This document shows, piece after piece, positions 22,701 through 48,937 of a DNA stretch of 64,000 bases; position 1 is the first letter of the stretch; each line of letters opens with the position of its first letter. The stretch is from Alphaproteobacteria bacterium (GTDB lineage Bacteria; Pseudomonadota; Alphaproteobacteria; Bin95). The stretch lies in assembly GCA_964291285.2 (NCBI GenBank), contig OZ219787.1, positions 736,001-800,000 of the forward strand, in the 5' to 3' direction. Both the position numbers and the translations under genes were made by a program. The notes under the pieces are model-generated. The model worked only from the letters and a program-made list of their open reading frames with translations, did no database searches and had not been told where the DNA came from.

Positions 22701-23015
22701 TCGGCAAACTCGCCGCCCTGCCGCCCGTCGCCTCAGCCCTCGACCAGATCATCCAGCATTTCGGTCACGAGGCCGTCGCCGAAATCACCGGCAGGTCGCG
22801 CCGCGTCCTGCGCATCAGCGACGCCAAAGGAGAACGCCTGGCGCTCCGCAACCGCCCGGCGTCGGCCAATCTCGCCGAGACCTCCGCCTTCATGCAGGGC
22901 GACAAGCGCATCCTCGTCTTCTCCATGGCCGGAGGCACGGGCCGCAGCTACCACGTGTTAGCGACGGTTACAGAGCGCGCCTATTCGCTGACATTTTTCG
23001 GCCGGTTGCGGTTTT

Positions 23016-23888
23016 TCAGTTGATCTGTTGGTCATCGGTTTCGATTGGTTCGCCGGCTCGGTCGCGGATGAGCATGTCGTTCCAGTCCCGGTTGTCGAGT
23101 GCGGGTCGCAGCCGGACGATTCTGGTGTCGTTGCGGGCGAGGCGCCTTGCGGCGTGATCGCCGTTTGTGGTGGCGTCGTATGCACAGAAGATGAGGCGCG
23201 GGTTCCATGCCTCGATCCATTTGGGGACTTTGGTGGCGACGGCGCCGGTGGAGACGGTGGCGCATTCGGTGCGTTTTACCGGGCCGAGGTGGAGGGAGAG
23301 GATGGAGAGTGCGTCGAGGGCGTTGCCGGCCAGGATGACGGCGTGTGGCCATTCGGTCTCCCAGGACATCCAGAAGCCGCCGCCCGCGGTCGTTTTGCGG
23401 TCAGCGGTGACGGTTTCGATGCCGGTAGCCTCGCCGGCGGCGTTTCGGCGGACGAACACGGGGTTGCCGTGAGGGTCGGCATGGACCAGGCCGAGGTCGC
23501 GGCACAGGGTGACGAGCGCGTCCGCGAGGCCGCGCCGCTCGACGAGGTATCGCCGGAGGTTGGGCCAGCGGGGGTCCTTGGCCGGCGCCTGCCGGCGGCC
23601 GCCTGGGGGCATTGAGAGGTCGGACAGTTCGGCGAGGAAGTCGATGGCGTCCGGCGGGGTGCATCCGAGCGCATGGACCGCCAGTTCGATAGCCCCGGCT
23701 CCCTCCTCTGCGCGCAGATGGTCGTAGAACATGAAGCGGTTGATGGAGAGGACCGATCCTGGCCGTCTCCAGCGCACGGCATTGTCGGGATCGCTGCGGT
23801 AGCCGAGGGCTCGGGCGACGGGTTCGAGGGGATAGCCCCGCAGGCTCTCGGCCCGCACCCGCCGCTCGCGGGGGCGGGAGGGATGCAT
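23016..23888 (-). CDS. DUF3991/Toprim primase-like passenger protein
   Basis: GAGAIEL, YL..RRGL, VF.RR...G..TG.E, NALDALS, CAYD...NGD, DWND; starts 2 nt after the istB stop. Confidence 0.7.
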   Translation of the reverse strand: MHPSRPRERRVRAESLRGYPLEPVARALGYRSDPDNAVRWRRPGSVLSINRFMFYDHLRAEEGAGAIELAVHALGCTPPDAIDFLAELSDLSMPPGGRRQAPAKDPRWPNLRRYLVERRGLADALVTLCRDLGLVHADPHGNPVFVRRNAAGEATGIETVTADRKTTAGGGFWMSWETEWPHAVILAGNALDALSILSLHLGPVKRTECATVSTGAVATKVPKWIEAWNPRLIFCAYDATTNGDHAARRLARNDTRIVRLRPALDNRDWNDMLIRDRAGEPIETDDQQIN

Positions 23889-23890
23889 GG

Positions 23891-24685
23891 CTATGGCGAC
23901 GGGACCGGGTTCGCCTTTCCAGTGCTTTGCCCGGCTTTCGGTCCGCGCCGGCGGCGGCGTTCGGCGCTGCGCTGCTTCTGACGTTCCTCGGCTTCCTTGC
24001 GGCGCCAGGAGTCGCCGTCGATGGCGACGATCTCGGCGTTGTGGACGAGCCGGTCGACGAGGGCGACCAGGCAGGCGGCGTTTGGGAAGGCCTCGCTCCA
24101 CTCGGCGAAGGGGCGGTTCGTGGTGATTATGGTTGAGTTCTGCTGGCTGCGGCTTGAGACGATGTTGAACAGCAGGTCGGCGTGGCGGTTGGAGTAGGAG
24201 AGATATCCGACTTCGTCGATGACCAGCAGGTGCTGTCGGGCGTAGAAGCGCAGCCTGCGCTGGAGCAGGGTGTCGGAGTCGATGGCGGCGAGTTCGCCGA
24301 GCAGGCTGGCGGCGGTTGCGAAGCGCACGATGTGGCCTTCGAGGACGGCGCGGTGGGCGATATTGGCGGCGATGGTGGACTTTCCGACGCCGTTGGGTCC
24401 GACCAGTACGAGGTTTGCGGCCTCCTTGAGGAAGTCGAGGGTCATGAGGTCCTCGACGGCCATGCGGTCGCAGCGCCTTGGCCAGTCCCAGTCGAAGTCT
24501 GCGAGCGGCTTGAACTGTCCGAGGCGGGCGTCGGCGAGGCGGCGTTTGAGGCTTCGGGCGCGCTTCTCATCTTCTTCCCACGCGATCAGGGAGGCGAGCC
24601 AGTCGCGCTCCGCGACTTCGCCCCAATGGGCGAGGAGGCCGTGCAGGCCCAGCGCGCGGGCGCGGTTCATGAGGGTGTCGGTCAT
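23891..24685 (-). CDS. istB: IS21 helper ATPase IstB
   Basis: GPNGVGKS Walker A, LLVIDEVGY, TTN.PF.EW, DRLVH, G.SWR. Confidence 0.95.
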   Translation of the reverse strand: MTDTLMNRARALGLHGLLAHWGEVAERDWLASLIAWEEDEKRARSLKRRLADARLGQFKPLADFDWDWPRRCDRMAVEDLMTLDFLKEAANLVLVGPNGVGKSTIAANIAHRAVLEGHIVRFATAASLLGELAAIDSDTLLQRRLRFYARQHLLVIDEVGYLSYSNRHADLLFNIVSSRSQQNSTIITTNRPFAEWSEAFPNAACLVALVDRLVHNAEIVAIDGDSWRRKEAEERQKQRSAERRRRRGPKAGQSTGKANPVPSP

Positions 24686-26187
24686 TCTTCGCTGTCCTTT
24701 TCATGGTAGCCGGCCAGCCCGTCGTATCCGCCGAGATCGTGATCGCGCACGGCGATGTCGCGCACGCGCGGGTCCCTGGGCAGGTCGATGGGGATCGGCG
24801 GCGGCCTGTCCTGCAGTTCGCGCCGCCGTGTGAGGCTGAGGCGCACGGCATTGGGATGGGGGACGCCGCGTTCGAGGGCCTCGTCGATGGCGGCTTCGAG
24901 CTCGGCGGCGCCGTATTGGTCGAGCAGGCGCAGCAGGGCGGCGACGGTGGCGCCGATATAAGCGCCGCGGGGGGCGGCCTCGGCGATCAGGCGCTCGCTG
25001 TTGGGCGCGGCCTGGAGCAGCCGGCTCTGCCCGCGCAGGCTGCGGGCGTGACGCTTGCGCCTGACCAGCTCCTCAATGTGTTCGGGGTTCTCGATGCGGG
25101 CCGCCTTGTCGAAGCTGCGCGGATGGCGGGCGATGACCTCCATGCCGTCGAGGATGCGCACCTCTTCCAGCGTCGCGGCCACGGTGAGGGTGCGCCGGAC
25201 ATGGGTATGCGGGACGCTGTAGTCATTGAGGTCGAACCTGGCATAGGGGGTCTTGGCGATCCTGACCTCGACCCTCTCGTCGACGGGGGGACGGTCGTCG
25301 GGCAGCGCCATCAGGGAGCCGCGCTCGCGCTCGAAGGCCTCGCTCACGGTGAGGGAGCGGTCGTCCGGCCAGGGGCGGTCGGCGGCGACGCCCTCGCACC
25401 ACTCCCGGGCCTGGGCGTTGAGATCGTCGAGGTCACGCCAGGCGCGGGCGGCGAAGAAGCTGTCGCGCACATAGCGTATGGCCCGCTCGACGCGGCCCTT
25501 CTCGTTGCCTCGGGCGACCGCGACCGGCTTCGGCAGGAAGCGGTAGGCGCCTGCGAAGTCGAGAAGCCGGGGATTGAAGCGGATGGCGTCGCCGCGCCGC
25601 TCCAGCACGACGCTCTTCAGATTGTCGTACCAGAGCTCGCGGGGCACGCCCTGCCAAGCCTCGAAGGCCTCGACATGGCCGCGCAGGAAGTTGTCCATCC
25701 CGGCGTTGAGGTAGAAGCGCAGGAAGAGGCGGCGCGAGTGGCCGAGCACCATCACGAAGGCCATCAGCGGGCGCTCCGCACGCCCGATCCTCACCTTGCC
25801 GAAGTGGGCCCAGTCGACCTGGGCCTGCTCGCCGGGCAGGGCCTTGAGGCGCAGATAGGCCTCGGCCACCGGCCGCGGACGCTCGGGCGCGATCATGCGC
25901 CGGAAGTGGCTCTCGCACCCCCGGTAACCGCGCTCGACCGCCATCCGGTAGAGCCGGCTGGAGGGCAACTTCGGCCAGACCGCCAGGGTCTGGCGGACGA
26001 AGGGCAGGAACGGATCGATCATCGAAGATCTGCGCCGCTTCTCAGGCGTGGGCGCCCCGGCGGCCGCCACCGCGCGCTCGACCGTGCCGTGGTGGACGCC
26101 GAGCTGGCGCGCGATCGTGCCGATCCGCCACTTCTCGGCAAAATACAGCCGCAGGATCTCGGCCCGGGTCTGCTGGTCGATCGCCAT
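24682..26187 (-). CDS. istA: IS21 transposase IstA
   Basis: PGEQAQVDWA, YDNLK, KGRVERAIRY. Confidence 0.95.
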   Translation of the reverse strand: MAIDQQTRAEILRLYFAEKWRIGTIARQLGVHHGTVERAVAAAGAPTPEKRRRSSMIDPFLPFVRQTLAVWPKLPSSRLYRMAVERGYRGCESHFRRMIAPERPRPVAEAYLRLKALPGEQAQVDWAHFGKVRIGRAERPLMAFVMVLGHSRRLFLRFYLNAGMDNFLRGHVEAFEAWQGVPRELWYDNLKSVVLERRGDAIRFNPRLLDFAGAYRFLPKPVAVARGNEKGRVERAIRYVRDSFFAARAWRDLDDLNAQAREWCEGVAADRPWPDDRSLTVSEAFERERGSLMALPDDRPPVDERVEVRIAKTPYARFDLNDYSVPHTHVRRTLTVAATLEEVRILDGMEVIARHPRSFDKAARIENPEHIEELVRRKRHARSLRGQSRLLQAAPNSERLIAEAAPRGAYIGATVAALLRLLDQYGAAELEAAIDEALERGVPHPNAVRLSLTRRRELQDRPPPIPIDLPRDPRVRDIAVRDHDLGGYDGLAGYHEKDSEE

Positions 26188-26188
26188 C

Positions 26189-26623
26189 TCACTCCCTTCG
26201 CGCCGGGCGCAGGCCCGGATAGACCGCCCGGGCGCAGAACCGCCCGCAGTGATCGCAGCGGAACACTCCGGCGGGACGGTCGGGTCCGAAGGGCCTCCTT
26301 CCCGAGCGCCCCGCCGGCATGCCCGCCACAACAGGACGGCGCGGTGAACGGGTCAAAGGGTGATGCGTCACTTTCTGCGCACGGCGCCCCTCCTCAGGCG
26401 CACGGACGCGACGGCGCTCGCGGTAGCGCCGCTGGCGTTCGGCATGCTTGTGACGGCCCCGCCGGCTGTTCTGGTAGCGACGCCCGGCAAGGCGCAGCGA
26501 GCGCCGCCGCGCCCGGCCGCTGCACGGACGCGAGCAGTAGATGTTGCCGTGGTCGCACCGCCGGCACAGCACAACCTGGCGATGGCACGAAGCGCAGGTG
26601 AACAGGCGGGCGGCGTTCCTCAT
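26189..26623 (-). CDS. Cys-rich basic protein upstream of istA
   Basis: CASC...CRRCDHG..YCS..C, HAERQRRYR; coupled to istA. Confidence 0.7.
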   Translation of the reverse strand: MRNAARLFTCASCHRQVVLCRRCDHGNIYCSRPCSGRARRRSLRLAGRRYQNSRRGRHKHAERQRRYRERRRVRAPEEGRRAQKVTHHPLTRSPRRPVVAGMPAGRSGRRPFGPDRPAGVFRCDHCGRFCARAVYPGLRPARRE

Positions 26624-28481
26624 CGCAAAGACCGATGAGAACGGGGTGGACCCACGCCCGAACGCCTACGATACTGCGCATACGGGCCGTGCCTTGCATG
26701 GCTCGGGGGGTGCGGCGCCGGTCGTTGCCACCTAGCAAACGGGGCCGGCGCCGCATCGTTCTCAGCAGCCCCAGTCTACCCCCTCGCGCAGCCCGGCGAC
26801 CCCCGCCGACAGCGCCAGGACACCCTCCCCTCGGCAGGCGAAAATATCAACGCGACGGGGGCCGGCGACTCCAGTCGGGCTACGCCCTCCTTCCGTCCCA
26901 GGCCCCCGTCACAAACACCGCCGCACCACAATCACTGCGATCATCACGCCCCGCAAAAACGCGCAACGCCAGCAAATAAGCGCCTTTTACGACCGTCACC
27001 TACACCACGCCGATCTCGGCTCGCCCAATACCGAACGGCGCATCCACTACCTGCTGGAGCCCGGCTGGCGCGCCGACCAGGCGATCCAGGGCCTCGGGCG
27101 CACCCACCGCACCCACCAGGCCTCCGCCCCGCTGTTCCGGCCCGTCACCACCGACGTCAAGGGCGAGCGCAGGTTCATCGCCACCATCGCGCGACGCCTC
27201 GACTCCCTCGGCGCCATCACACGCGGCCAGCGCAACTCCCAGACCTCCATGGGCACCGAAAGCCAGACCCTCTTCCACGAGAGCGACAACCTGGAGAGCC
27301 CCTACGCCAAGGCCGCGCTTCGCCTCCTCTACGGCGCAATCCATCGCGGCATCATCCGGGAATGGTCCGTCAAGCGCTTCCAGGAAGCGACCGGCCTCAA
27401 GATCGAGCATGAGGGCAATCTCAAGGAAGACCTGCCGCCCATGCCCAGGTTCTTGAACCGCCTGCTCGCGCTGCCGATCGACGAGCAGAACCAGCTCTTC
27501 ACCGAACTGGAAACCCGCATCGACGAAAATATCGACCGCGCCAGGGAAGCCGGCACCTACGAAGTCGGCGTCGAGACCATCATCGCGGACTCGCTTGCGA
27601 TCAAGGCCCGCGAGACCCTGTTCGAGCATCCCCGTTCCTCAGCCGTCACCGAGCTCGTCGAGATCGCCCGCCGCGACCGTCTCGTCCCGCTTCCCTCAGA
27701 CGATGCGATCGACATCGCCAGCCGATACGGCGACAACGACGGCCAACCCTTCCTCGTCATCAACTCCAGGTCCCGACGCGCTGCCTTCGTCCTCCCGGCG
27801 CCGTCACGCCTCTTCGACGACGGCGGCGTGCAACGGCGCGTGCGCCTGGTAAGGCCGGCAAGCCACGAAACCATCCCCTACGCCGACCTCCAGGCCTCCA
27901 ACTGGTCCCTCGCCAATGAGGCGCCCTGGCGTATCCACTGGGAACGTGAAATCGCCGGCCTCCCGAGCCACAGGGACTCACGCTTCTGGATCACCTCCGG
28001 CTTGCTTCTGCCCATCTGGAACCGGCTCCCCGACGACAATATGCGCGTCCGCCGGCTCACCGCCGACGACGGCGAACAGCTTATCGGCCGGGTCCTCGAC
28101 GCCGACCAGGTGCGCAAGGTCAGGAAAGCCTTCAATCTCGAAGGAGCCACGGAGCTCACGGGCGAGGAGGCCTACGACGCCATCCTGAACCGGGGGTCCG
28201 CACTGCCGCTGTCCAACGGATGGCGCCTCTCGCGCCGCTCCATCTCCGGCGAGGACCGCATCGAGCTCGAAGGCCCCGACGACACCGACACCGAAGCGCT
28301 CCGCCAGCTCGGCTGCACCGTCGAGCTCATCACATGGCGGGCGCGCATCTTCGTCCCGGCGCCGCACGTGCTGGAACGCATCTTCACCCGCTGGCCCCTC
28401 TCGGCCTAGCGATACCGGAACCGCAAACCCCGAAAGGACCCCGACCCTTCATCCAACCCTGAACCGAAAAGCGCCCGCGCC

Positions 28482-29297: not shown

Positions 29298-32200
29298 ATG
29301 GATAATCAACACATTGATGACGATCCCCATGCTACAGGCGATATCGAACAATTCGAGGGATTCGGACCGTCAGGAGGAAACCCGGGGGTCGATGAGCTGG
29401 ACCCCCACGACCGGGACGATATCGACCCCGCCGACCGCGCCATCAGCTCCGGCGACTGGATGAACCAGGCCCGCCTGTTCGGCCTCGGGCCCGCGCGCGG
29501 CGAGCCGGATACCCGCGCCATCTACGACCAGGACGACGCCCACACGGCCGTCGAAGAGGTCCTCAACATCATCGCGACCAGGATCGCGCCGGACGGATCG
29601 GCCCTCGCCGGCGACCGCGGCGAGCTCCTCTACGGCTTCGTCCACGTCCTCAACGCACAGGCGGAGCGGCTGCACAAGCGCGTCGACAGCATGACCCGCG
29701 AGCTTCGGGAGCTCATCCATGCCCAGGACGGCTCCGAGGTCCGCGACACCGAACTGTCGGACAAGACCGAAGAGGCCCGCAGCCTCCATGACCGCGCCCT
29801 TGCCTTCGACCGCCTCACCAACACCGCCTCCATCTCGTACGAGAACCTCACCGGCCTTACCTGGCGCGCACGCGAGGCCCACAAGTCGACCTTTTCTCTG
29901 ACCGAGCCCTCCCGCGCGCCAACGGTCTCGCTCGCCGACCACCTGAATGCCCGCACCTGGCTGGAACGCTCCCAGGGCACCCGGATCGCCGTCGTCTCCG
30001 GCCAGCGCCCCGGACGGGCCCTCGTCTGGGGAACCCTCTCGCGCCTTCTGAAGGAACATCCCGACCTCGTCGTCGTCACGGGCGGCAACAAGAACGGCGC
30101 CGACCGCGATGCCCAGGAATGGGCCACCCACTACGACGTCCCGCTCAACGTCGTGAAACCCGACTTCGACGCCCCCGACTTCAACGCCGAACTCAGGGCC
30201 CGCAACACCCGCATCGTCCACCATATGGGCGAGAAGGGCCTGAAGGAGGACGGCGCGGCGATAAACGGCCTCCTCGTCTTCCCCGGCGCCCGGACCGGCG
30301 TGCCGGGCGATCTCGTCGCCAAGGCCCGGGCCGCCCGCGTCCCCATCGCGGAGATCGAAAACGCCGCCCAGCTCCATGCCGGCCGCGGCCGCCTGATGCC
30401 GGGCTATACCCTCGACCACAACGAGTTCCGTCAGGAACCCGACGCCGGCGACGCGGACCCGGGCCGCGGCGAGCGCCGCACGACCCGCGCCGCCACTGCC
30501 GCCGGCGCTGCCGATCCCGAGCGCACTCGCACGTTCGCGGACCCCAGGGACACCCTGGCCTTCGCCGTGAACCTCCTGGCCGAGAGGGTCACCGCCGACG
30601 GCTACCAGCTGAACGATGAACGCGAAAAGCTGCTCTGGGGCGTGGGCAATGTCTTCTACAAGCAGTTGCAACGCCTCAATACCGAAGCGAAGGCCGCCGT
30701 CTCGGATACCGACCTCGCGCCCGAGACCAGGGACGCGCTCGCCCGCGACTACGATAACCGCCGCGATGCCCTCGGGGCGCTTTTCCAGGAAGCGCGCACG
30801 ATCTACGCCCGCGAAGCCCGGCAGCCCTGGAACGCGGACGGCTACGCCAGGCTCGACCACACCCACACGCTCGCCACCCTCGAAGCCGAGAGCTTCCTGA
30901 AGCAGGTCCAGCAGCACCGCCACGAAGCGATCTACCGCGACGGACAGTATGTCGTCGCCGCCGGCGGCGCCCTGGCGCCCGAACAGGAAGAGGCACACCG
31001 CCCCGTAGTCGACCGCTATCTCGACAAGGTGCTCGCCACATACCCCGACACGGTCCTGGTCCATGGCGGAAACGACAAGGGCTACGACAGGCTCTTCGCC
31101 GAATGGGCCGCACGCAACGACGTCCCCCAGATCGCCGCGCAGCCGGAATGGGGCCCGCACGCCCAGGGCAAGGCCCCCATCATGCGCAACGAGAAGATCT
31201 TCGACAAACTGGCCATCAAGGGCCTCGTCGCCTTCGGATCCAGGGGCGCGATCCTCGAGGACATGATCCAGCGCGCCGGAAAGGCGACCTGGCACATCGA
31301 TCCCGCCGCCGAAATCGCCAACCTCCCCAAGCCGGTCCTTCACCCCGATCCCGACGGCACCTGGGAGAAGATCAAGGCGGACCACACCACCATCTTCCGG
31401 GCCGCCGGGAACCAGCCGCACCTTCTCCCCTACCAGGAAGGCTTCGACGACTTTCGCGGGCTCCTCAAGACCGCGATCGACACCGGGAACCACCCGGAGC
31501 ACCACGGAGCCCGCCTCCGGAAACTCCAGGACGATCTCGATATCCAGGCCGAACGCCGCGATACCGTCCTGCGCCTCCAGGACCGCGTCGAGCACCTTTC
31601 GGAACGGCTGGATGACCTGAAGGGGTGGGTGGAAGCCGAGCCCGGGCGCCCGGTCGAGCTCGCCCCGGGCTTCACCGCCTGGCTCAGGGACCGCGACGCC
31701 ACCGTCGCCCAGTGGAACAACGCAACCCGGAACCCCGAGCTGCAGGACCATCTCCCCCGGATCGACCCGGACGCCATCCACGCGCAGGTCGATCGCTTCG
31801 CCAATCCCGACCTGCCGGCGCTCTTCCACCCCCGGCTGGAGACCGGCAACACGCATGTCGAGCGCGTCAACAACCTCTACGAGCATGCGCTCGCCTTCGT
31901 CGACCGCGACCCGAACCTGGTCGCCTACTCGCCGCATTTCGAGGAACTGCGCGATACCGTGAAGCAGGTCGCCGGCGAACTCGTCTCGCAGCCCGACCAG
32001 GCGCAGGACCTCAGCAGGATCGACGGCCGCCTTCAGGCCTCCAGCGACCGCCGGGCCGAAGCCGGCGCCGCGGCGCGCGACCTCTCCGAGGCCTGCACCC
32101 AGGTCCTCGGGTTCCAGCAGTGGGCCGCCGAGAACGAACGTCCCGTTCACGAGGCCCCCAACTTCAAGGAATGGCGCGACAGCGCGGACCGGATCCTCAC

Positions 32201-32399
32201 GCGCTGCGAGACCATGCGCAACGACCCCGAGCTTGCGCCCCACCTCGAACGCGCCGGCGCCTCGGCCGAAACTACCGAAATCGCCGTCGCCCTCCTCCGC
32301 GACGAGCGCTTCCAGCGCCCGGTCGTGCCCGAACTGCCCATGGCCCAGCACCGGGCCCGGCAGGAGAGCATGGAAGAAGGCCGGTCCATGAGCGTCTGA
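29298..32399 (+). CDS. 2x[helical + DUF2493/SLOG] protein with two C-terminal helical repeats
   Basis: VVVTGG..NGAD..A..WA...RARN and VLVHGG..KG.D....WA...P.MRN SLOG motifs; C-terminal repeats shared with the next two ORFs. Confidence 0.8.
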   Translation: MDNQHIDDDPHATGDIEQFEGFGPSGGNPGVDELDPHDRDDIDPADRAISSGDWMNQARLFGLGPARGEPDTRAIYDQDDAHTAVEEVLNIIATRIAPDGSALAGDRGELLYGFVHVLNAQAERLHKRVDSMTRELRELIHAQDGSEVRDTELSDKTEEARSLHDRALAFDRLTNTASISYENLTGLTWRAREAHKSTFSLTEPSRAPTVSLADHLNARTWLERSQGTRIAVVSGQRPGRALVWGTLSRLLKEHPDLVVVTGGNKNGADRDAQEWATHYDVPLNVVKPDFDAPDFNAELRARNTRIVHHMGEKGLKEDGAAINGLLVFPGARTGVPGDLVAKARAARVPIAEIENAAQLHAGRGRLMPGYTLDHNEFRQEPDAGDADPGRGERRTTRAATAAGAADPERTRTFADPRDTLAFAVNLLAERVTADGYQLNDEREKLLWGVGNVFYKQLQRLNTEAKAAVSDTDLAPETRDALARDYDNRRDALGALFQEARTIYAREARQPWNADGYARLDHTHTLATLEAESFLKQVQQHRHEAIYRDGQYVVAAGGALAPEQEEAHRPVVDRYLDKVLATYPDTVLVHGGNDKGYDRLFAEWAARNDVPQIAAQPEWGPHAQGKAPIMRNEKIFDKLAIKGLVAFGSRGAILEDMIQRAGKATWHIDPAAEIANLPKPVLHPDPDGTWEKIKADHTTIFRAAGNQPHLLPYQEGFDDFRGLLKTAIDTGNHPEHHGARLRKLQDDLDIQAERRDTVLRLQDRVEHLSERLDDLKGWVEAEPGRPVELAPGFTAWLRDRDATVAQWNNATRNPELQDHLPRIDPDAIHAQVDRFANPDLPALFHPRLETGNTHVERVNNLYEHALAFVDRDPNLVAYSPHFEELRDTVKQVAGELVSQPDQAQDLSRIDGRLQASSDRRAEAGAAARDLSEACTQVLGFQQWAAENERPVHEAPNFKEWRDSADRILTRCETMRNDPELAPHLERAGASAETTEIAVALLRDERFQRPVVPELPMAQHRARQESMEEGRSMSV

Positions 32400-32444
32400 C
32401 CGGCACCCATCGACACCCCCAAAAGCCGATCCGGAGTTCAACCC

Positions 32445-33818
32445 ATGTCCACAAATCCCGATGCCCGTCCGCCCGACCGCATGAAAAAAGCGCTCTCCTC
32501 CTGGCTGCAGCGCGTCGAGGAGAACCCCAAGGCGGATGCGATCACCGATGTCGTCTTCGATGATGACGAGGTCCCACTCGCAGCCAGGACGCTCGTCCTC
32601 GATACCTTCCGGAGGAATTGCGAGCAGCTCTTTGCGGCCGACGACATCCCCGGCGATCTCGATTTCGTACGCGTCCTCAAGCGTTCGTTCGAACAACACG
32701 ACAAGAGAATGGACGGCGCGCTCGAATCCCCCTGGCAGCCCGCCACGCCCAAGCGGACCTGGGACACCATCAAGGAGATCTACAGATCAATTTACGAAGC
32801 CGCCGGCTCCAGAATCGACGGCATAGCCTACCAAAAGGGATTCCCGTTCCTCTACGACCTTGTCGAGAAGGCGGAGTTTGCCGCCCACTACCCCGACCAT
32901 GCGGAAGACAAGCTCCAAGCGCTGCTCCTCACGCTCAAAACGCAGCAGAAGCTTACTTTTGCTGTCTACAACCTCACCGGCGCCCTCCATGGCGCCTGCG
33001 GGCGCCTCGATCATCTGCAGGAACTGGCCCGCAACCTTTACCATCAGCCCTTTCTGCAAACCGAGGATTATTTCGAATGGCTTCCCGAACGCGATGAAAT
33101 CTTCGCGAAACTGCACGAACTGCGCGCCGATCCCGTCCTGAAACACCACGTGCCCTTTCTCGACATCGAGCGCCGCCTCGATCGCATCGCCGCCCCCAGC
33201 CTGCCCACGGCGTTCCACCCGTTCCTGGAGGCCCATAGGAACCGCCTCGACTTCAGCCCCGAAATGGAGGAAGTCGCCGCCATCTACGGCCGCGCCCACG
33301 CGGACATGGGCGACGCCGATCTCGTTCCTTACTCTGCAGCGCACTTCGCCGACCTTGAGATCGCCATCGAAACCGCGATCAGCGCTGCCGCAGACAACCC
33401 GCGCCAGCTCGGTTCGCTCTATGCCCTGCAGGCCCAGCTCGCGATCTCCACCGGCCGCCGCGAAACCGCCCACGCCGGAATCGAAGACCTGACCGAGGTC
33501 TCGACACAACTCACCAGCCTGCAGGCCTGGGCCTCGTCGAACCGGCAGCCCATCCACCGGGCCCCGGGGTTCGCGGCCTGGCGAGACCGGGCCGACGAGG
33601 TCCACGACCGCTGCCAGCGTATGCGCACGGATTACCTTCTCTGTCCCCACTTCCAGCGAACCGGCGTGTCCGACGACTCTGTTGCGATGACCCTCGCCCT
33701 CCTTCGGGACAGCCGGTTCCAGAAGCCTCCCTCACCCGAGCAGATCGCCGCGCAGCGCCAGGCCCGCGCCCTGGCCCGCGCAGACTCCCGCGAGGAATCG
33801 GCCTCCATGAGCGCCTGA
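32445..33818 (+). CDS. Protein with a short unknown N-domain and two helical repeats
   Basis: TW..IK..Y..., PIHRAPGF..WRD.AD, LLRD.RFQ.P, ends SMSA. Confidence 0.75.
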   Translation: MSTNPDARPPDRMKKALSSWLQRVEENPKADAITDVVFDDDEVPLAARTLVLDTFRRNCEQLFAADDIPGDLDFVRVLKRSFEQHDKRMDGALESPWQPATPKRTWDTIKEIYRSIYEAAGSRIDGIAYQKGFPFLYDLVEKAEFAAHYPDHAEDKLQALLLTLKTQQKLTFAVYNLTGALHGACGRLDHLQELARNLYHQPFLQTEDYFEWLPERDEIFAKLHELRADPVLKHHVPFLDIERRLDRIAAPSLPTAFHPFLEAHRNRLDFSPEMEEVAAIYGRAHADMGDADLVPYSAAHFADLEIAIETAISAAADNPRQLGSLYALQAQLAISTGRRETAHAGIEDLTEVSTQLTSLQAWASSNRQPIHRAPGFAAWRDRADEVHDRCQRMRTDYLLCPHFQRTGVSDDSVAMTLALLRDSRFQKPPSPEQIAAQRQARALARADSREESASMSA

Positions 33819-33858
33819 CCGGACGCTCACCGCAGAAAACCCAGGAGAGCATCCAGCC

Positions 33859-36837
33859 ATGAACCCCGAACTGCATGCCTTCTTCCTCGACCCGTCCGCA
33901 TCCGGACATTTCCTGCATGCCGAGCTCTCCCAGGCCTATCGCCGCGCATATGAACAGGCCGGCGGCCAGCACGAACTCATGGCCTATGCCGACGACTTCG
34001 ACTTCCTGCTCGAGGAAACCCGCGAGTATCTCGACGACGAGGCGGAACACCACCTCTACCCGGAATATGTCACCAACCTTGCCAACCTTCAGACCGCTCT
34101 CCGGGCCATGGGACGACGCTCCGCCCAGGCCAGCGAACTGCTGATCGAAATCCGACAACGCCTTGAGGAGATCGAAGACCTCCGTATCCGCTACGGCGAA
34201 GGCCTGCTGGCCGGAGACGACGGCGCCTACGACAGCTGGCTGGAAGCCCGCCAACGCACCCTCGCGGAAGTCGAACGCCTCCGCGCCGATCCCGACATGG
34301 CCCCCCACCTCGACCGCGTGCTGACCAACCTTGCCGAACTCGCCAATGCCGCGACGCCGGCGACCCTCGCCGAAGCCGCCGCTGCCGCAGCATCCCCACC
34401 GGCGCCGGCCCCGGACGAAACCGCCTCCGTTGCACCCGCCGCCGATGCCGGCCTGCAATCCCAAGCCGAGGCCTCAACCGTCCACGCTCCGGAGAACGAC
34501 CGCCCCCTGGTGTGGGCCGGCATCGGCTCGCGCGGGAATACCCGGGAACCGATGCCCCCTTCCGTCCTCACCGACATGACCGAACTGGCACGCCGGATGG
34601 CGGCCGCCGGCTGGCACCTCTCTTCCGGAGGCGCGGACGGCTCCGACACGGCCTTCGCCAACGGCACCCCCGTCGACCAGCGCACGATCTGGGTCCCCTG
34701 GGCCGGTTACAACGACCTCTCCGGACCCGACTGCCACCCGATCCCGCGAGACCGCCTGCAGCAGTCCCTGGACCTTGCAGAACGCATCCACCCCGCCTGG
34801 GACAAGTGCTCCCAGGGCATGCGCAAGCTCCACGCGCGCAACGGCCTGATCCTGCTCGGCCGCGACCTCGACCGTCCTGTCGATGCCGTCGTCGCCTACA
34901 CCCAGGGCGGCAAGCTCCAGGGCGGCACCGCCCAGGGCCTCCGCATCGCCATGGAGCACAACATCCCGATCTTCAATCTCGGCTCCATGACGATGGAACA
35001 GGCCTGGGAAAAGCTCCAGGCCCTGCAACGCTCCCTCCGGCCTGACGCAGCGGTCCGGTCCGCAGCCGAAACCGCCCGGAAGGAGGCAACGGGGCAGGGC
35101 GCTTCACGCAGCTACGACGCCGACACCGCCTGCGTCTTCCGATTCAGCCGCGACGAATGGGGCGTCTTCAGTAACTTCTTCCCGTCCATCCAGGCGATCC
35201 ACGCCGCCGGACACATATTCAAGACCTCGGAGCATCTCTACCAGGCGGCGAAGTTCCGCGAGTCCCCCGACGTCCAGGCGCGGATCGCGGGCGCCCCATC
35301 GGCGAAAGACGCCGCCACCATGGGCCGCGACACCGCCAATCCGCTGGACGCCGACTGGAACGCTCGCCGCATGAACGCCATGCGCTGGGTCATCCGGATG
35401 AAGCGCGAGGCCAATCCCGAGCTGGTCAATGCCGCCCTCCAGAAGACCGGCGATCGGCCGATCGTCGAGTTCTCCCGCCACGATTCCTTCTGGGGCGCGC
35501 AATCCCAGGGCAACAACCTGGTCGGTCAGAACATCCTCGGACGGCTCTGGATGGAGCTCCGCCAGCACATACGCGACGGCGATCCCCGCGCGCTCGCTTC
35601 CGCCTGGGAGGATCCGCTCACCCCAAAAACGGTCGCCCGGGCGCCTGCAGCTCAAACCGCTGAAGCGGACCTGCCCGAAGCGCCCGGGCTCACCACCCGC
35701 CGCGAGTTTCTGCAGACCTCGGGCAACACCTGGGCCGCCGCCCACGAGGACCCGGCCGCGGCCGCCGCAACCTGGCAGAGCATCAAGACAGACTACGCCT
35801 CGCTGTACGCCGCGTCGGGAGACCGCATCCACCACCTTCCCTACCAGGAAGGCTTCGCAGGGTTTCGCGATCTCGTCGCCGGCGCCGTGCGGGACGGCGC
35901 GTGCCCGCCCGAGCACCGGGACCGCCTCCAGGCCCTGCACCAGACCCTCGAAACCCAGGCCGGCCGTCACGACACGGTCACCGACGCCGCGAGCCGTCTC
36001 GACGATGCGTTCTCACGCCTTCAGGACCTGAAGGAGAAGGCGAACTCGGAAGAGGGACATACCATCGAGACCATGCCGGGCTACACCGCCTGGCTCCGCG
36101 ACCGCGATGCGGCCGTGGCGCGCTGGCACGAGCTGGCCGCGGACCCGGCGCACCGGGAGCACATGCACATCGTGGCGCCCGACATGATGGCGCCGCGCAT
36201 CACCGAGCTCTCGAACGGCCCGCTCGCCAGCATCCACCAGCCACGCGCCGACACCCCGGTCCCTTCACCCGGACAAGACGTCTACACGCCCTCCCTGCAG
36301 CCGCTCTCCCGGGTCTATGACCGCGCCATGGCATTCGTGGACCGCGACCCGAACCTCCTGCCCTACGCTCCGCAGTTCGACGAGCTGAAGGCAGCCCTGT
36401 CGACGGCCCTCGACGAATGCAGCCACACGCCCGATCTCGTGACCAGGCTCACCGCCCTGCGCACGGCGCTGGACGAAAACCAGGAGCTCAAAAGCCGCGC
36501 AGAAGCCGTCACCGAAAGCGTCTCCAGGGCCGGCCACACGCTTTGCAGCATGAAGAGCTGGGCCACAGACGCCGGCAGACCCGTTCACGAAGCGCCCCGG
36601 TTCAAGACCTGGCGCGAGGAGGCCGACCGTGCACTGCAGGACTACGACGCGGCCGCGACGACCCCGGGCCTGGCCGTTCATCTCGCCCGCGCCGACAGCC
36701 TTGGCGTCCTCGCCGAAACCGCGGTCCCGATGCTCCGCGACGACTCCTTTCGCGAACCGGTCGCCGCCCAGGCCTCGCTGGCTGCCAGCCGGCAGCGTTC
36801 GGAACAGGCCGAAGAGCATTACTCGATGAGCATCTGA
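33859..36837 (+). CDS. Repeat - SLOG (DprA-like) - NADAR - repeat - repeat fusion protein
   Basis: WAGIGSR...SGGADGSD.AF...HARN...GGTAQ..RIA (SLOG); FSNF...SEHLYQAAKF...DSFWG...GQNILGRLWMELR (NADAR); ends SMSI. Confidence 0.85.
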   Translation: MNPELHAFFLDPSASGHFLHAELSQAYRRAYEQAGGQHELMAYADDFDFLLEETREYLDDEAEHHLYPEYVTNLANLQTALRAMGRRSAQASELLIEIRQRLEEIEDLRIRYGEGLLAGDDGAYDSWLEARQRTLAEVERLRADPDMAPHLDRVLTNLAELANAATPATLAEAAAAAASPPAPAPDETASVAPAADAGLQSQAEASTVHAPENDRPLVWAGIGSRGNTREPMPPSVLTDMTELARRMAAAGWHLSSGGADGSDTAFANGTPVDQRTIWVPWAGYNDLSGPDCHPIPRDRLQQSLDLAERIHPAWDKCSQGMRKLHARNGLILLGRDLDRPVDAVVAYTQGGKLQGGTAQGLRIAMEHNIPIFNLGSMTMEQAWEKLQALQRSLRPDAAVRSAAETARKEATGQGASRSYDADTACVFRFSRDEWGVFSNFFPSIQAIHAAGHIFKTSEHLYQAAKFRESPDVQARIAGAPSAKDAATMGRDTANPLDADWNARRMNAMRWVIRMKREANPELVNAALQKTGDRPIVEFSRHDSFWGAQSQGNNLVGQNILGRLWMELRQHIRDGDPRALASAWEDPLTPKTVARAPAAQTAEADLPEAPGLTTRREFLQTSGNTWAAAHEDPAAAAATWQSIKTDYASLYAASGDRIHHLPYQEGFAGFRDLVAGAVRDGACPPEHRDRLQALHQTLETQAGRHDTVTDAASRLDDAFSRLQDLKEKANSEEGHTIETMPGYTAWLRDRDAAVARWHELAADPAHREHMHIVAPDMMAPRITELSNGPLASIHQPRADTPVPSPGQDVYTPSLQPLSRVYDRAMAFVDRDPNLLPYAPQFDELKAALSTALDECSHTPDLVTRLTALRTALDENQELKSRAEAVTESVSRAGHTLCSMKSWATDAGRPVHEAPRFKTWREEADRALQDYDAAATTPGLAVHLARADSLGVLAETAVPMLRDDSFREPVAAQASLAASRQRSEQAEEHYSMSI

Positions 36838-36856: not shown

Positions 36857-38341
36857 CTGACCGAAAGCCGCCTCACCCCAAGACAGCTCTCCGACCTGCT
36901 CAAACCCCAGGCCGAGGCCGTCTGCCGGCATTACCTTCCGGCCGGCCGGAAAACCGGCGACTACTGGCAGGTCGGCGACGTCCACAACAACCCGGGCCAA
37001 TCCCTTTACGTCCATCTGACCGGAAGGAAGGCCGGGCGCTGGAAGGATACCGCCACGGGCGAAGACGGCGACCTCCTCGACCTCATCAAACATGCGCGCG
37101 GCCATCTCAAGCTCGGGCACGCCATGGCCGAAGCCAGGCAGATCCTCGGGATCACCGACGCGCCCCGCAACGCGGATCCCAAACCGAAACCCGCACCCGC
37201 CGCGCCCAGGCCGGCCGCGCAGCCTGTCGAGAACGATGACGGCGATGTTTCGTCCAACACCGCCAACGCGCGCCGCCTCTGGGAGCGCTGCAGGCCGCTC
37301 ACCGACACCGATGCGGCGATCTATCTCCATTCCCGGGGCATCTCGGACATCGCCCACGACTCCCTGCGCTACCATCCCGAAGTGATCTACCGCGACGACA
37401 GCTTCGTCACCCGGGCTCCCGCCATGGTCGCCGCCATCAAGGCCCCGGACGGCTCGATCAACGCCGTCCACCGCACCTGGCTCGACGCAAGCGGAACCGG
37501 GAAGGCCAATCTGCGCGAGCCCCGCAAGCTGCTCGGATACGCCAAGGGCCACGGCGTCCTGTTCCATCCCGAACGCGCCGATCGGAACGATATCGTCGTC
37601 GGTGAAGGCATCGAAACCGTGCTGTCCGTCACCTCCGCCATCCCGGGCTGCGCCGGCATCGCGACCCTCTCCTCTTCGGTGATGGCCGGCATCGCCATAC
37701 CCGCCTCCCTCGGCCGGGTGCTCATCGCCGTCGACCGCGACAAGTCCGGCTACCCGGCCGCCATGAAGCTCGAAGAGCGCCTTCGGGAAGAGGGCCGGCC
37801 GGTTCGCCTTATCCTTCCCCAGCGAAACGACTTCAACGATGACCTGATGGCGCTCGGCGCCAGCGGCCTGCGCGAACACGTACAGGCCCAGCTGGCCGCC
37901 CCGGCCCTGCAGTTGCCCGGAGAGATCCCGCCGCCCCCGGCGCCGTGCTCCGAGCAGCCCGCCGCCCCCGAGCCCGTGCTCGCCCTGGCGCGCAGCGCGC
38001 TCTCCTCGGACGCCTCCCAGTTCGGCCTGGTCGCGCTGGACGAGGTCGACCACAAGGGGCTGGCGAAAACCATCCACTTCGAGAAAACGCCCAACGAACA
38101 GCAGGTGCGCACCTGCGCCCGCGCCTGGGCCGACGTCGCCACAATCGCCGCGCGCCAGAAGGGCATACGCAAGGTCCTCGTGCTCGCGGATGCCTGGCTG
38201 ATTCCGCCCCTCGAGCGCGAGCTCCGCGCCCGGCAGCTCATCCCCGTCTATCCGCACCTCGTCACCCGAAAGATCGATACCCCCTCAGGGCCCCGGTGGG
38301 ACCGCAAGCTCATCGGCATCGTGCCCTCCCTCCGGGACTGA
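36857..38341 (+). CDS. DUF7146/Toprim primase-like protein with C-terminal extension (CTG start inferred)
   Basis: Frame open from CTG 36857 through AEAVCRHYLPAG...GDLLDLI; VHRTWL, GEGIET, DFNDDL. Confidence 0.8.
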   Translation: MTESRLTPRQLSDLLKPQAEAVCRHYLPAGRKTGDYWQVGDVHNNPGQSLYVHLTGRKAGRWKDTATGEDGDLLDLIKHARGHLKLGHAMAEARQILGITDAPRNADPKPKPAPAAPRPAAQPVENDDGDVSSNTANARRLWERCRPLTDTDAAIYLHSRGISDIAHDSLRYHPEVIYRDDSFVTRAPAMVAAIKAPDGSINAVHRTWLDASGTGKANLREPRKLLGYAKGHGVLFHPERADRNDIVVGEGIETVLSVTSAIPGCAGIATLSSSVMAGIAIPASLGRVLIAVDRDKSGYPAAMKLEERLREEGRPVRLILPQRNDFNDDLMALGASGLREHVQAQLAAPALQLPGEIPPPPAPCSEQPAAPEPVLALARSALSSDASQFGLVALDEVDHKGLAKTIHFEKTPNEQQVRTCARAWADVATIAARQKGIRKVLVLADAWLIPPLERELRARQLIPVYPHLVTRKIDTPSGPRWDRKLIGIVPSLRD

Positions 38342-41012: not shown

Positions 41013-41996
41013 ATGCACGCCCAAACCTCCCCCGCATCCGAGATCGCCGCCGCCCTGGCCGCCCAGGCCGAGGCCGTCTGCCGGCATTACCTTCCCGCCG
41101 GCGAGCGCCAGGGCCGCTACTGGATCGCAGGCGACGTCCACGGCGCCCGCGGCAAGTCCCTGTTCGTCCGCCTACACGGCCCCCGGTCCGGCAAATGGAA
41201 CGACGGCGCCACGGGCGACCACGGCGACCTCCTGGACCTCATCAAGCACCGGACCCGGTCCGAGACGCTACGGGAGACCCTGGCCGAGGCGCGCTCGTTT
41301 CTCGCCACGCCCGCTCCCAGCCGCCGGTCCGCTCCGGAACTCGTCGACAAGGACCCCTCCGCCGCCATCGAGCGCCTGTGGCGAGCCTGCCGGCCGATCG
41401 GCGGCACCCACGCAGAGGCATACCTCCACGCACGCGGTATCCGGCGCTGCCGCTTCCCCTCGCTCCGCTTCCATCCGAAGCTCCGCTACCAGGACGAGAA
41501 CTTCACCGGCGCATTCCCCGCCCTCGTGGCCGCAGCAACCGACGCACGCGGCGAGCTCACCGGCCTGCTGCGCACCTGGCTCGATCCGAAAGAGCCGACC
41601 AAGGCGCCGGTCCAGCACCCGCGCAAGGCGCTGGGACGCCTCTTCGGCTCCGCCGTGCGTTTCCCTCCGCGGAGCCCGCGTTCCACGCTCGTGGTCGGGG
41701 AAGGCCTGGAAACCGTTCTCTCCATCATCACGGCCTACCCGGGCGCAGCCGGCGCAGCCGCTCTTTCCGCCGCTGGCGTCGGATCGTTCTCGGCCTCGGC
41801 CGCCAGGCGCGTTGCCATCGCACGCGACAATGACCCCGACGGCATCCAGGCTGCTGACCGCCTGGCCGAGCGCTGCGAGAAAGCCGGCATCGTCTGCCGC
41901 GTTCTCATCCCCCGCGGCAACGACTTCAACGACGACCTGACCGACTACGGGATCCCGTCCCTTCGCTGGCACCTCGGCTCGCCCTGGTCGCGCTGA
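41013..41996 (+). CDS. DUF7146/Toprim primase-like protein (second paralog)
   Basis: AEAVCRHYLPAG, GDLLDLI, RTWLD, GEGLET, DFNDDL. Confidence 0.85.
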   Translation: MHAQTSPASEIAAALAAQAEAVCRHYLPAGERQGRYWIAGDVHGARGKSLFVRLHGPRSGKWNDGATGDHGDLLDLIKHRTRSETLRETLAEARSFLATPAPSRRSAPELVDKDPSAAIERLWRACRPIGGTHAEAYLHARGIRRCRFPSLRFHPKLRYQDENFTGAFPALVAAATDARGELTGLLRTWLDPKEPTKAPVQHPRKALGRLFGSAVRFPPRSPRSTLVVGEGLETVLSIITAYPGAAGAAALSAAGVGSFSASAARRVAIARDNDPDGIQAADRLAERCEKAGIVCRVLIPRGNDFNDDLTDYGIPSLRWHLGSPWSR

Positions 41997-47755: not shown

Positions 47756-47975
47756 GGTAGGTCTCCCTCGTGTTCCGGTGCCGTCGGCAGCGCGGCTCGC
47801 CGTTCACCGTGTGGGTCGCCCTCGCACCGCAGGGCATCTCGCCATACGGGCCTGGGGCCGTGCAGCGCGGGCCGGGGTCCGGCCGCTGCTCCGGCCTCGG
47901 GGCATTGCGTCCAGCGACCATGCCCAGGAGGCCGAGCAGCACCGCGCCGCCCACGATGACGATGAGGGTTGTCAT
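47748..47975 (-). CDS. Small TM + Cys/His cargo protein
   Basis: ATGA overlap with the transposase stop; N-terminal TM, C..C..C..H. Confidence 0.5.
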   Translation of the reverse strand: MTTLIVIVGGAVLLGLLGMVAGRNAPRPEQRPDPGPRCTAPGPYGEMPCGARATHTVNGEPRCRRHRNTRETYRG

Positions 47976-48883
47976 GCGCCGCAGGGATTGTTGCGGGTGC
48001 GGTAGCGTGTCCCCTTCGCCGGACCAGGCTTCTTCGGTGGCGGCGCGGCGGCGTCGATGAGGCCGACGATCCACTCCATGTCGTGCAGGCTCCTGTCCAC
48101 GCCGGCGGCCATGGCGGGCGTCACCCTGAGCGTCTTGTGGACCCGCACGAAGTTGTAGAAGCAGAAGAACAGCGAGCTCATGTGGATATGGTTCTCGACC
48201 TTCTTGGAGAAGGCGTTGGTGAGCCGCGTGAACCGGCGCATCCCCATCCGCATGGTGAGGTTGTGGCGCTCGACGTGTGACGTGCTGATCTTCTCCGGCT
48301 CGGGCCAGCCCTCGACCGTCTTCTTGATGATGCCGACGCACTCCGAAGGCGAGTAGCGTTTGGACGCCTCCTTGCCCGCTTCCAGCACGCCGTAGAGCTT
48401 CACGAGCTGGGCATAGTCCACGTCGCCCCCGAACGCGCCCTCGACGGCTTCCAGATAGGCGGCATGGCCATCCGTGGTCAGTTGCACCCGGTTCACCAGC
48501 CGCGAGCGCAGATCGTCCATGAGGTCGAGGGCAACGTCGGCTTCGCGGGTGCCGAACCGGTAGGACAGGATTATCTTCGAGTCGCTGTCGAGAGCGGTCC
48601 ATGTCCAGAGGTCGCCCGCGCCTGGGGGAGGTTTCAGGGCGAAGGGGACGTTCTTCTTCTTGGCGTAGCAGAAGGCCCATATCTCGTCGCACTGGACGTG
48701 GCGGGCGTGAACCTCCCGGACTGCCTGGTCGTGGTGCATGGCGCAGGCATGGCCCGCGTCCACGAGCAGCTTGGAGACGGTGTTGATCGAGACATCCGCG
48801 ATCCGCGTGATGGCCCGCATCGACACACCCTCGACGAGCATGTGGAGGATGTGAGCGCGCTTGGCGGTTGAGAGCTTGTTCAT
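47972..48883 (-). CDS. IS1-family DDE transposase
   Basis: LVEG.S.R HTH, QCDEIW, LTTDG, TSHVER.NLTMRM..RRFTRLTNAFSKK, TPAMAAG. Confidence 0.88.
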   Translation of the reverse strand: MNKLSTAKRAHILHMLVEGVSMRAITRIADVSINTVSKLLVDAGHACAMHHDQAVREVHARHVQCDEIWAFCYAKKKNVPFALKPPPGAGDLWTWTALDSDSKIILSYRFGTREADVALDLMDDLRSRLVNRVQLTTDGHAAYLEAVEGAFGGDVDYAQLVKLYGVLEAGKEASKRYSPSECVGIIKKTVEGWPEPEKISTSHVERHNLTMRMGMRRFTRLTNAFSKKVENHIHMSSLFFCFYNFVRVHKTLRVTPAMAAGVDRSLHDMEWIVGLIDAAAPPPKKPGPAKGTRYRTRNNPCGA

Positions 48884-48890
48884 GGCGTTG

Positions 48891-48918
48891 AAGATAAAGG
48901 ACGATTGCACACTGTCAA
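48891..48918 (-). promoter_or_regulatory. Candidate sigma70 promoter of the transposase (leaderless)
   Basis: TTGACA-N16-TATCTT, 7 nt before ATG. Confidence 0.5.
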
Positions 48919-48937
48919 GCACAATGTCATTTTATCT

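Follow-up and report, generated by a model that had tools for sequence, protein, structure and literature searches.

A C-terminal repeat module common to conjugative relaxases and three tandem proteins with nucleotide-processing cargoes in an alphaproteobacterial element

The window analysed here is a 64-kb stretch of contig OZ219787.1 from an alphaproteobacterium, and it holds three tandem genes (29298..36837) whose products, P0001, P0002 and P0003, differ in their N-terminal cargoes and end in the same C-terminal module. Judged from sequence comparison, this module is derived from, or held in common with, conjugative relaxases: it is confined to effector-like proteins and the C-termini of relaxases, and almost every full-length homolog has it at the very C-terminal end. 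On balance we favour the reading that the three proteins are substrates of a conjugative type IV secretion system (T4SS), which would be recruited by the coupling protein via module and tail and would enter the recipient during mating.

Results

Three tandem genes with a common C-terminal module

The three genes lie on the forward strand and are separated by 45 nt (P0001-P0002) and 40 nt (P0002-P0003). Gene 1 (P0001, 1033 aa; 29298..32399) encodes two tandem units, each made of a helical region and a YAcAr SLOG domain, followed by the module. Gene 2 (P0002, 457 aa; 32445..33818) has around 100 N-terminal aa of no known family before the module, and gene 3 (P0003, 992 aa; 33859..36837) starts with an additional repeat and continues with a DprA/SLOG-like region, a NADAR domain and the module.

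The module consists of two helical repeats of around 150 aa (A and B), a Q/R/E-rich linker and a terminal SMSx motif. In P0001 it is encoded at 31350..32396 (+), with repeat A, repeat B, the linker and the end EEGRSMSV; in P0002 at 32748..33815 (+), ending in REESASMSA, which is the stretch used for structure prediction; and in P0003 at 35761..36834 (+), ending in AEEHYSMSI. By BLASTP the last 350 aa or so of the three proteins are colinear in every pair with 31-37% identity, specifically 37% for P0001/P0003 (E 4e-69), 34% for P0001/P0002 (E 5e-52) and 31% for P0002/P0003 (E 1.4e-38). The three-way alignment contains TWEKIKADH / TWDTIKEIY / TWQSIKTDY in repeat A, LPYQEGF / IAYQKGF, AWLRDRD / EWLPERD and LRD..F..P, as well as PVHEAPNFKEWRDSAD and its counterparts in the other two proteins, and all three proteins finish in the invariant E-E-x-x-S-M-S-x (SMSV, SMSA and SMSI). 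The earlier note on this DNA, made from the sequence alone, had described three open reading frames (ORFs) with a common two-repeat C-terminal module, and its description proved to be accurate: the coordinates are exact, the modules are colinear and every string that it quoted is in the alignment.

The same note had seen a seventh copy of the repeat opening the third protein. This copy, found by BLASTP, phmmer and the hidden Markov model (HMM) described below, covers residues 1-156 of P0003 (33859..34326, +) and ends in DPDMAPHLDR. It matches copy A of P0002 (E 4.4e-7), copy B of P0001 (E 1.6e-5) and copy A of P0001 (E 0.002) by BLASTP, and the phmmer domain E-values for these comparisons go down to 1.1e-8. 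The matches that define the internal duplication (copy A with copy B) and the seventh copy are weaker than those of the whole module, yet they are consistent, and we retain both. The HMM domain E-value of the seventh copy is 1e-42, the copy itself being a seed member. Furthermore, an N-terminal repeat copy as in P0003 is also present in the homologs P0004, P0007, P0014, P0031 and P0037.

The module on relaxases of the own genome

The genome that contains the window comprises 6.1 Mb in 5 contigs. We searched an HMM of the seven repeats against all its 52,871 six-frame ORFs (60 aa or longer) and, beyond the three proteins, only 3 ORFs were matched, all of them TrwC relaxase/helicases (1548, 1447 and 1447 aa; E 5.6e-6, 1.9e-3 and 1.9e-2), with all the matches falling within the C-terminal third. 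After 4 iterations of the profile over this ORF set together with relatives, the own genome contributed the window's three proteins and 8 of its 17 TrwC relaxase ORFs, which have between one and three repeats. The only other member in this genome was a protein of 1596 aa whose gene directly follows that of a relaxase; unrelated ORFs of the genome were not recruited. Thus, the suggestion that such a profile might find relaxase C-termini was borne out, and specifically so, with 3 TrwC proteins at the seed stage and 8 after iteration. As a whole, the genome has 21 TrwC matches in 17 larger ORFs and 7 matches to type IV coupling proteins (T4CPs), and no MobA/MobL match was found in its 6.1 Mb.

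The module in database homologs

The whole-module profile was compared with 1.84 billion representative proteins and matched just 37 clusters at E<=1e-3. In 17 of the 18 clusters with E<=1e-30 the match ends at most 15 residues from the C-terminus. We scanned 31 of the 37 clusters with Pfam, the other six being fragments of at most 139 aa. P0010 is a relaxase with MobA/MobL and AAA_30 domains (Ti-type TraA) whose residues 750-1093 make up a full module with both repeats (E 2.6e-92); over the N-terminal 740 aa it matches genes annotated 'Ti-type conjugative transfer relaxase TraA' on 1389 plasmid records. Residues 754-1101 of P0010 are 41% identical to the P0003 module over 362 columns, and its C-terminus is 38% identical to the P0001 module; therefore, the module of this relaxase is as close to the window modules as these are among themselves. 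Four repeats were seen in P0022, a TrwC relaxase. Regarding the other scanned homologs, three have two YAcAr domains, four combine DUF4326 and NADAR, and one has Macro, a weak DprA-like match and NADAR; several, such as P0014 and P0018, consist of two or three repeats and the tail with no enzyme domain.

In an exploratory tree that carries no support values, repeats A and B of P0010 branch among those of the window proteins, and the terminal repeats of two TrwC relaxases cluster with the B copies. The module is common to relaxases of two families, MOBQ-like and MOBF, which fits recruitment to the transfer machine rather than DNA chemistry. The ESM Atlas search with P0002 gave no usable match, and the Atlas contains no model of it.

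Predicted fold and relation to BID

An AlphaFold2 model of the P0002 module, built from a 28-row alignment, was predicted confidently, with a mean local distance difference test score (pLDDT) of 92.9 and a template modelling score (pTM) of 0.83. The model is all-helical, with no strand assigned by DSSP, and each repeat has one helix of 44-48 residues. The best Foldseek match in the PDB had E 0.15. Two VIA fold matches are N-terminal four-helix bundles of toxin domains and fall within the background of this tool for helical proteins. With the two-repeat model as the query, no BID chain was among the matches listed by Foldseek, by the wide VIA search or by the second VIA look. A PDB sequence search with the module profile was discarded as coiled-coil noise (best E 0.03, a myosin construct).

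The pAt TraA of Agrobacterium fabrum belongs to a type of relaxase that, according to a review, bears tBID2 (PMC6509941). Neither the seed repeat HMM nor its 4 iterations matched the C-terminus of A. fabrum pAt TraA, and hhalign of the repeat against it gave a probability of 0.14%; this sequence negative is a weak one, given that the TraA C-terminus itself matches no PDB chain (phmmer). In the same protein (L014:6001-10629) we observed an internal duplication of around 250 aa within the C-terminal 540 aa (28% identity, E 2.5e-12), which is consistent with the two BID-bearing units of the literature. As for a likeness to BID or TSA domains, for which the earlier note proposed a comparison, none was found by sequence with the HMMs, hhalign or the PDB profile, and the fold searches gave no clear match. 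The repeats are acidic, with net charges of -4 to -17.

The C-terminal tails

The last 25 residues of P0001, P0002 and P0003 are rich in Q, R and E, and their net charge of -1, +1 and -1 respectively makes them near neutral; in 19 homologs the net charge of the tail ranges from -5 to +5, mostly being zero or negative. A short arginine-containing tail of the VirB/D4 type had been expected: the arginine is indeed present, but the tail is not positively charged. We also dropped, as a claim, the 'E-block' signal of Dot/Icm systems, described in Legionella; the tails are Q/R/E-rich but near neutral.

Nearly all members of the family end in the pattern small-hydrophobic-small-hydrophobic (SMSA, SMSV, GMSM, SMGL). 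The relaxases of the own genome end alike (GGGISV, GGLSLL, DQGLSL), including those with no repeat (MDLGL); indeed, nearly every full-length relaxase of this genome, with or without a repeat, has a hydrophobic-small-hydrophobic tail (also EMELGM). The regular expression [SGAT][MIL][SG][AVILM]$, which was written after the tails had been seen and is descriptive only, matches 19 of the 4187 called genes, a total near the rough estimate from approximate residue frequencies; of these 19, 3 are the window proteins, 5 are relaxases and another 3 are large proteins encoded downstream of relaxases (11 in all). In relatives, small proteins of 207-256 aa encoded between the cluster and the relaxase (L028:8117-8737, L029:15608-16375 and L031:11179-11925) have acidic ends that resemble those of the module proteins (DEGYSMAA, DESYPMAA, GDEPAMAA).

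The cargo domains

In P0001, Pfam detected YAcAr (PF10686) in 2 stretches with 95.9 bits (gathering cut-off 28.2, E 1.3e-27). Elsewhere, the genome encodes 20 standalone YAcAr proteins (227-396 aa) that show homology to each of the two cargo units, for example at C1:150110-151297, C2:230549-231472 and C3:115834-117021 (C1 to C5 being contigs of this genome); half of them (10/20) are located within around 50 kb of a relaxase gene. These 20 paralogs end directly after the SLOG domain, with neither module nor tail, and therefore the module is an add-on. For P0002 there was no family match in Pfam, NCBIfam or PADLOC, and its N-terminal 101 aa have no paralog among the called genes of its own genome.

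The NADAR domain of P0003 (PF08719, residues 431-572; 35149..35574, +) is near full-length (profile positions 7-163 of 163) and scores 84.8 bits in Pfam against a gathering cut-off of 35.1 (E 1e-23); NCBIfam NADAR models match the protein under their cut-offs or at domain level. The putative DprA-like SLOG region lies approximately at residues 206-400 (34474..35058, +) and gave sub-threshold Pfam hints, LDcluster4 at E 0.09 and DNA_processg_A at E 0.19; in the homolog P0016, DNA_processg_A reaches E 2.3e-4, also under the cut-off. Thus, among the cargoes that had been proposed, the two SLOG domains of P0001 and the NADAR of P0003 stand, whereas the SLOG of P0003 has sub-threshold hints only. 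The PADLOC scan matched P0003 to just one NADAR-type candidate model (E 1e-6), and P0001 and P0002 had no match in it.

The DprA-like region of P0003 has homologs (E 4e-70 to 4e-67) in the central part of proteins of 1584-1596 aa. These are encoded just downstream of long TrwC relaxases (C2:484973-489724, C5:38950-43701 and C3:1885970-1890757) and end in GMGLGA or GRGLSA; the C3 copy has one repeat. An 1818-aa protein of a relative (L027) has two YAcAr domains and two repeats. Together with L027, these large proteins downstream of relaxases may form another class of such substrates.

Transfer systems linked to the module

We found 7 loci related to the cluster, 6 in Alphaproteobacteria records and 1 in a Gammaproteobacteria record. 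The order methylase, helicase, P1, P2-like, P3 and toprim is kept in the 3 long ones (L007, L008 and L009), in which the helicase is a single intact gene of 1490 aa. In three related genomes the cluster lies 23 kb (G001), 17 kb (G002) and 15 kb (G003) from a TrwC relaxase. A T4CP and DotI/IcmL follow within another 20-35 kb in G001 and G002; in G003 the nearest T4CP is around 134 kb away and the nearest DotI/IcmL around 146 kb away. The expectation that homologs would occur within conjugative elements is supported by G001 and G002, which have a relaxase, a T4CP and T4SS genes near the cluster, and in part by G003, where only the relaxase is near; the element of the window itself has none of these genes. 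The proposal of the earlier note that a relaxase-type signal has been grafted onto nucleotide-processing enzymes is well supported as an inference, by the specificity of the HMM, by the module of P0010 and by the elements of the relatives.

Beside the cluster in relatives there are short ORFs that match only the first 72 or so positions of the module (L008:11103-12008, L009:12465-13436, L007:17537-18109 and L013:1919-2866); by their sequence they look like truncated or remnant copies.

In the own genome, the relaxase with three repeats (C2:250536-255089) adjoins a T4CP and a type IVB-like apparatus, with DotA/TraY at 224 bits (cut-off 100), IcmT/TraK at 53 bits (cut-off 40) and DotB-, DotG/TraO-, DotI/IcmL- and DotD-like genes. 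No VirB4/TrbE (PF03135) match was found in this genome. The linked secretion systems are type IVB-like and not of the VirB/D4 kind to which the earlier note referred, with no PF03135 in the genome and DotI/IcmL near the cluster in relatives. The same C2 relaxase and type IVB locus has beside it a DISARM/BREX-like set (SNF2 helicase with NOV_C, DUF1156 methylase-like and DUF499) and a PIN/Phd pair (L016, C2:236102-246039).

We also compared the 37 genomes of the order: 9 have the module (E<=1e-10) and 11 have DotI/IcmL, and every one of these belongs to the genus of the window's genome. Both are present in 8 genomes, the module only in 1 (a 240-contig assembly), DotI only in 3 and neither in 25; these counts are descriptive, given that related genomes are not independent samples.

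The element in the window

The cluster belongs to a decayed integrated element. The element has a serine recombinase (2509-4095), a ParB-like gene, RadC and a C5 methylase. Upstream of the cluster there is a Strawberry-notch-type helicase (PF13872 and PF13871, +) split in two parts, 19901-23020 and 27249-28406, by an IS21-like insertion (IstB 23894-24685 and IstA 24685-26331, both -). Downstream there are two DUF7146-Toprim (primase-like) genes (37124-38338 and 41013-41993, +), which are syntenic in relatives; the helicase, insertion and Toprim assignments come from Pfam. DUF3150, DUF2201/VWA and DUF7007 genes are also present. Ordinary metabolic genes are found beyond an IS1-like transposase (47975-48922), which is adjoined at the right edge of the element by an N6/N4 DNA methylase fused to an HNH endonuclease domain (48941-50230, -).

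Discussion

Delivery through conjugation and its alternatives

Several observations weigh against the three proteins being T4SS substrates. Neither relaxase, T4CP nor T4SS genes are present in the window element (64-kb window), and therefore the proteins would need a T4SS encoded elsewhere in the genome. Furthermore, in the own genome the ortholog (L032, C3:2075651-2077273) of the cluster-linked T4CP of G001-G003 lacks the first 100 codons or so that are present in these relatives, and a transposase-like ORF ends just upstream of it; therefore this type IVB-like transfer system is probably defective. In relatives, the relaxases closest to the cluster have a single distant repeat that emerges only upon iteration (E around 1e-14), and the module profile does not match them at E<=0.01. 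Among 72,556 PLSDB plasmids, tblastn with the P0002 module and the P0010 C-terminus gave no match. The predicted fold has no clear known match and so does not link the module structurally to any signal domain already described, no experimentally characterised signal available for comparison is like the tail, and the repeats-only members (P0014 and P0018) may mean that the repeat has a function of its own. Finally, the anti-defence role of the cargoes is a prediction from the identity of their domains.

Relaxase C-terminal domains also bind accessory proteins. A module common to relaxases fits equally well a role in the donor, where the protein that carries it would be docked to relaxosome, coupling protein or transferred strand with no export; the enzymes would in that case serve the transfer apparatus or the T-strand there. 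We nevertheless regard such docking as unlikely: the C-terminal position is kept in 17 of the 18 strong matches and the last four residues are conserved, features that are typical of secretion signals, and a docking domain does not need a conserved terminus; moreover, the relaxase is itself a translocated protein. The repeats might also be highly divergent BID domains (BID1 and tBID2, as in TraA relaxases) and the family an ordinary member of BID. The layout is the same, two tandem helical C-terminal domains on a Ti-type TraA (P0010) and on effector-like proteins, and the terminal copies cluster across relaxases and effectors in the manner of the tBID classes, again in a tree that carries no support values; BID domains, besides, reportedly share only around 14% similarity (PMC6509941), so the sequence tests may simply fail. 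Still, the HMMs and hhalign found nothing in A. fabrum TraA, the PDB gave no convincing match, no BID chain was among the matches listed by the three fold searches, the tail is not positively charged, the repeats are acidic and the linked T4SSs are type IVB-like in a genome that has no PF03135. We consider this identity distinctly unlikely.

It is very unlikely, in our opinion, that the module serves generally as a helical scaffold or for oligomerisation, spreads by recombination among genes of mobile elements and has no role in secretion, the proteins being cytoplasmic enzymes for maintenance or defence of the element. In a genome of 6.1 Mb the module is found only on relaxases, one relaxase-adjacent protein and the three window proteins; its position and terminal motif are conserved, and P0001 and P0002 have no PADLOC model. 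The least probable case, which we can hardly credit, is that the proteins are contact-dependent toxins aimed at competitors and not helpers of DNA establishment. A variable N-terminal enzyme joined to a common C-terminal T4SS domain does mirror the X-Tfes of Xanthomonas with their XVIPCD (PMC8740702). However, SLOG, NADAR, Macro and DUF4326 are eraser or processing domains and not known killing domains (PMC9503650), the gaps of 45 and 40 nt leave no space for small immunity genes, and the cluster is surrounded by genes for replication and establishment (ParB, methylase, helicase and toprim).

Proposed mechanism and significance

Translocation by a conjugative T4SS is thus the reading that we retain. 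The coupling protein would recognise the module and the tail as it does the relaxase, and the proteins would pass into the recipient during mating, following the same logic as VbhT, in which a FicT toxin is joined to a relaxase BID domain; the window copy would use a T4SS encoded elsewhere in the genome. Once in the recipient, the cargoes would erase ADP-ribose (ADPr)-based defence chemistry ahead of any expression from the element. They would act on bases of the incoming single strand that have been ADP-ribosylated, or else on ADPr-derived signals, and the incoming single-stranded DNA would be a natural target of DarT. NADAR reverses the guanine ADP-ribosylation made by DarT, and phages use orphan NADARs against DarTG1 (PMC11125620, PMC11825919). 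That the cargoes act against ADP-ribose-based defences is a tentative proposal, to which we give somewhat less than even chances. The whole picture, namely a relaxase-derived family of translocation domains for alphaproteobacterial type IVB-like conjugation that injects ready-made ADP-ribose erasers and SLOG enzymes before genes are expressed, protects the incoming single strand against DarT-type DNA ADP-ribosylation and quenches ADPr-derived signals, is possible but more doubtful, and we put it forward with corresponding caution.

The principle of a relaxase signal on effectors is known from VbhT and BID. What appears to be new is a sequence-distinct module on both MOBQ-type and MOBF-type relaxases that is tied to type IVB-like conjugation, together with its near-neutral SMSx tail, its ADP-ribose/nucleotide-processing cargo and the presence of three such genes in tandem. 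We found no earlier description of this arrangement in the literature; most subscription journals and supplements were outside the scope of the search, so one may exist. At present, anti-defence in conjugation is seen mainly as the early expression of leading-region genes, and the main text of the Nature 2024 paper on leading-region anti-defence has no NADAR, no SLOG and no word beginning with ADP-ribos or translocat. If the window proteins are delivered as such, conjugative elements have a second and faster route to disarm their recipients and, if the anti-defence role is true, ADP-ribose-based immunity is a barrier to conjugation and not to phages alone. The module would also serve as a sequence handle to predict which proteins are T4SS substrates in type IVB-like conjugation. 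Moreover, effectors would have arisen a second time, independently, through fusion to the C-terminus of a relaxase, which is a proposed route for the origin of host-targeted effectors (PMC5675462).

Comparison with known systems

The closest parallel is BID, which together with a positive tail forms the bipartite signal of alphaproteobacterial relaxases, of Bartonella effectors (Beps) and of the toxins VbhT (FicT-BID) and PezT/Zeta-BID; TraA relaxases have two BID domains, and BID signals are linked to VirB/VirD4-like systems (PMC6509941, PMC5675462). In VbhT, the relaxase-derived BID domain makes the protein a conjugation-delivered effector, and such composite relaxase/effector architecture is taken as the mark of a terminal reassortment from a relaxase (PMC5675462, PMC6509941). 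Like BID, the module is a helical C-terminal domain, often in tandem and followed by a short tail, that is found in Alphaproteobacteria on both relaxases and unrelated effectors. Nevertheless, its repeats have around 150 aa and are acidic, compared with around 100 aa in BID, and they have no detectable sequence relation to BID, a weak negative based on one TraA and the PDB. Its tail is near neutral and ends in SMSx, whereas that of BID is positively charged; TrwC (MOBF) relaxases carry the module as well, and the systems linked to it are type IVB-like and not VirB/VirD4; and the cargoes of the module are ADP-ribose/nucleotide-processing domains, whereas those of BID include toxin-antitoxin toxins.

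The XVIPCD of the Xanthomonadales X-Tfes, with around 120 aa in an alpha-alpha-beta-beta-beta fold, binds the all-alpha domain of VirD4 (PMC8740702). It resembles the module in being a conserved C-terminal domain behind diverse N-terminal enzymes, and its Q/A/E/R-rich tail recalls the Q/R/E-rich linker of the module. However, XVIPCD has beta strands and is not found on relaxases, whereas the module is all-helical, duplicated and common to relaxases. Regarding proteins that accompany the DNA, establishment and protective proteins of the F plasmid (ParB, SSB and PsiB) travel through the conjugative T4SS (PMC8406263, PMC11288057), and primase transfer by conjugation systems, in IncI/IncP plasmids, is mentioned as well (PMC5675462). 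The window proteins would be like these in passing a conjugative T4SS as establishment or protective proteins; the difference is that the F-plasmid proteins and primases have no common relaxase-like domain and that none of them, as described in these sources, is an ADP-ribose-processing enzyme.

Finally, the same combinations of cargo domains are found in the SLOG-Macro-NADAR-DUF4326 fusions of phages and giant viruses; those of phages are predicted counter-defence enzymes that destroy ADPr-derived signals or remove ADPr adducts (PMC9503650). These fusions are made from the invading genome, whereas the module proteins carry a relaxase-type C-terminus, and therefore the module on the cargo would imply delivery as a ready-made protein.

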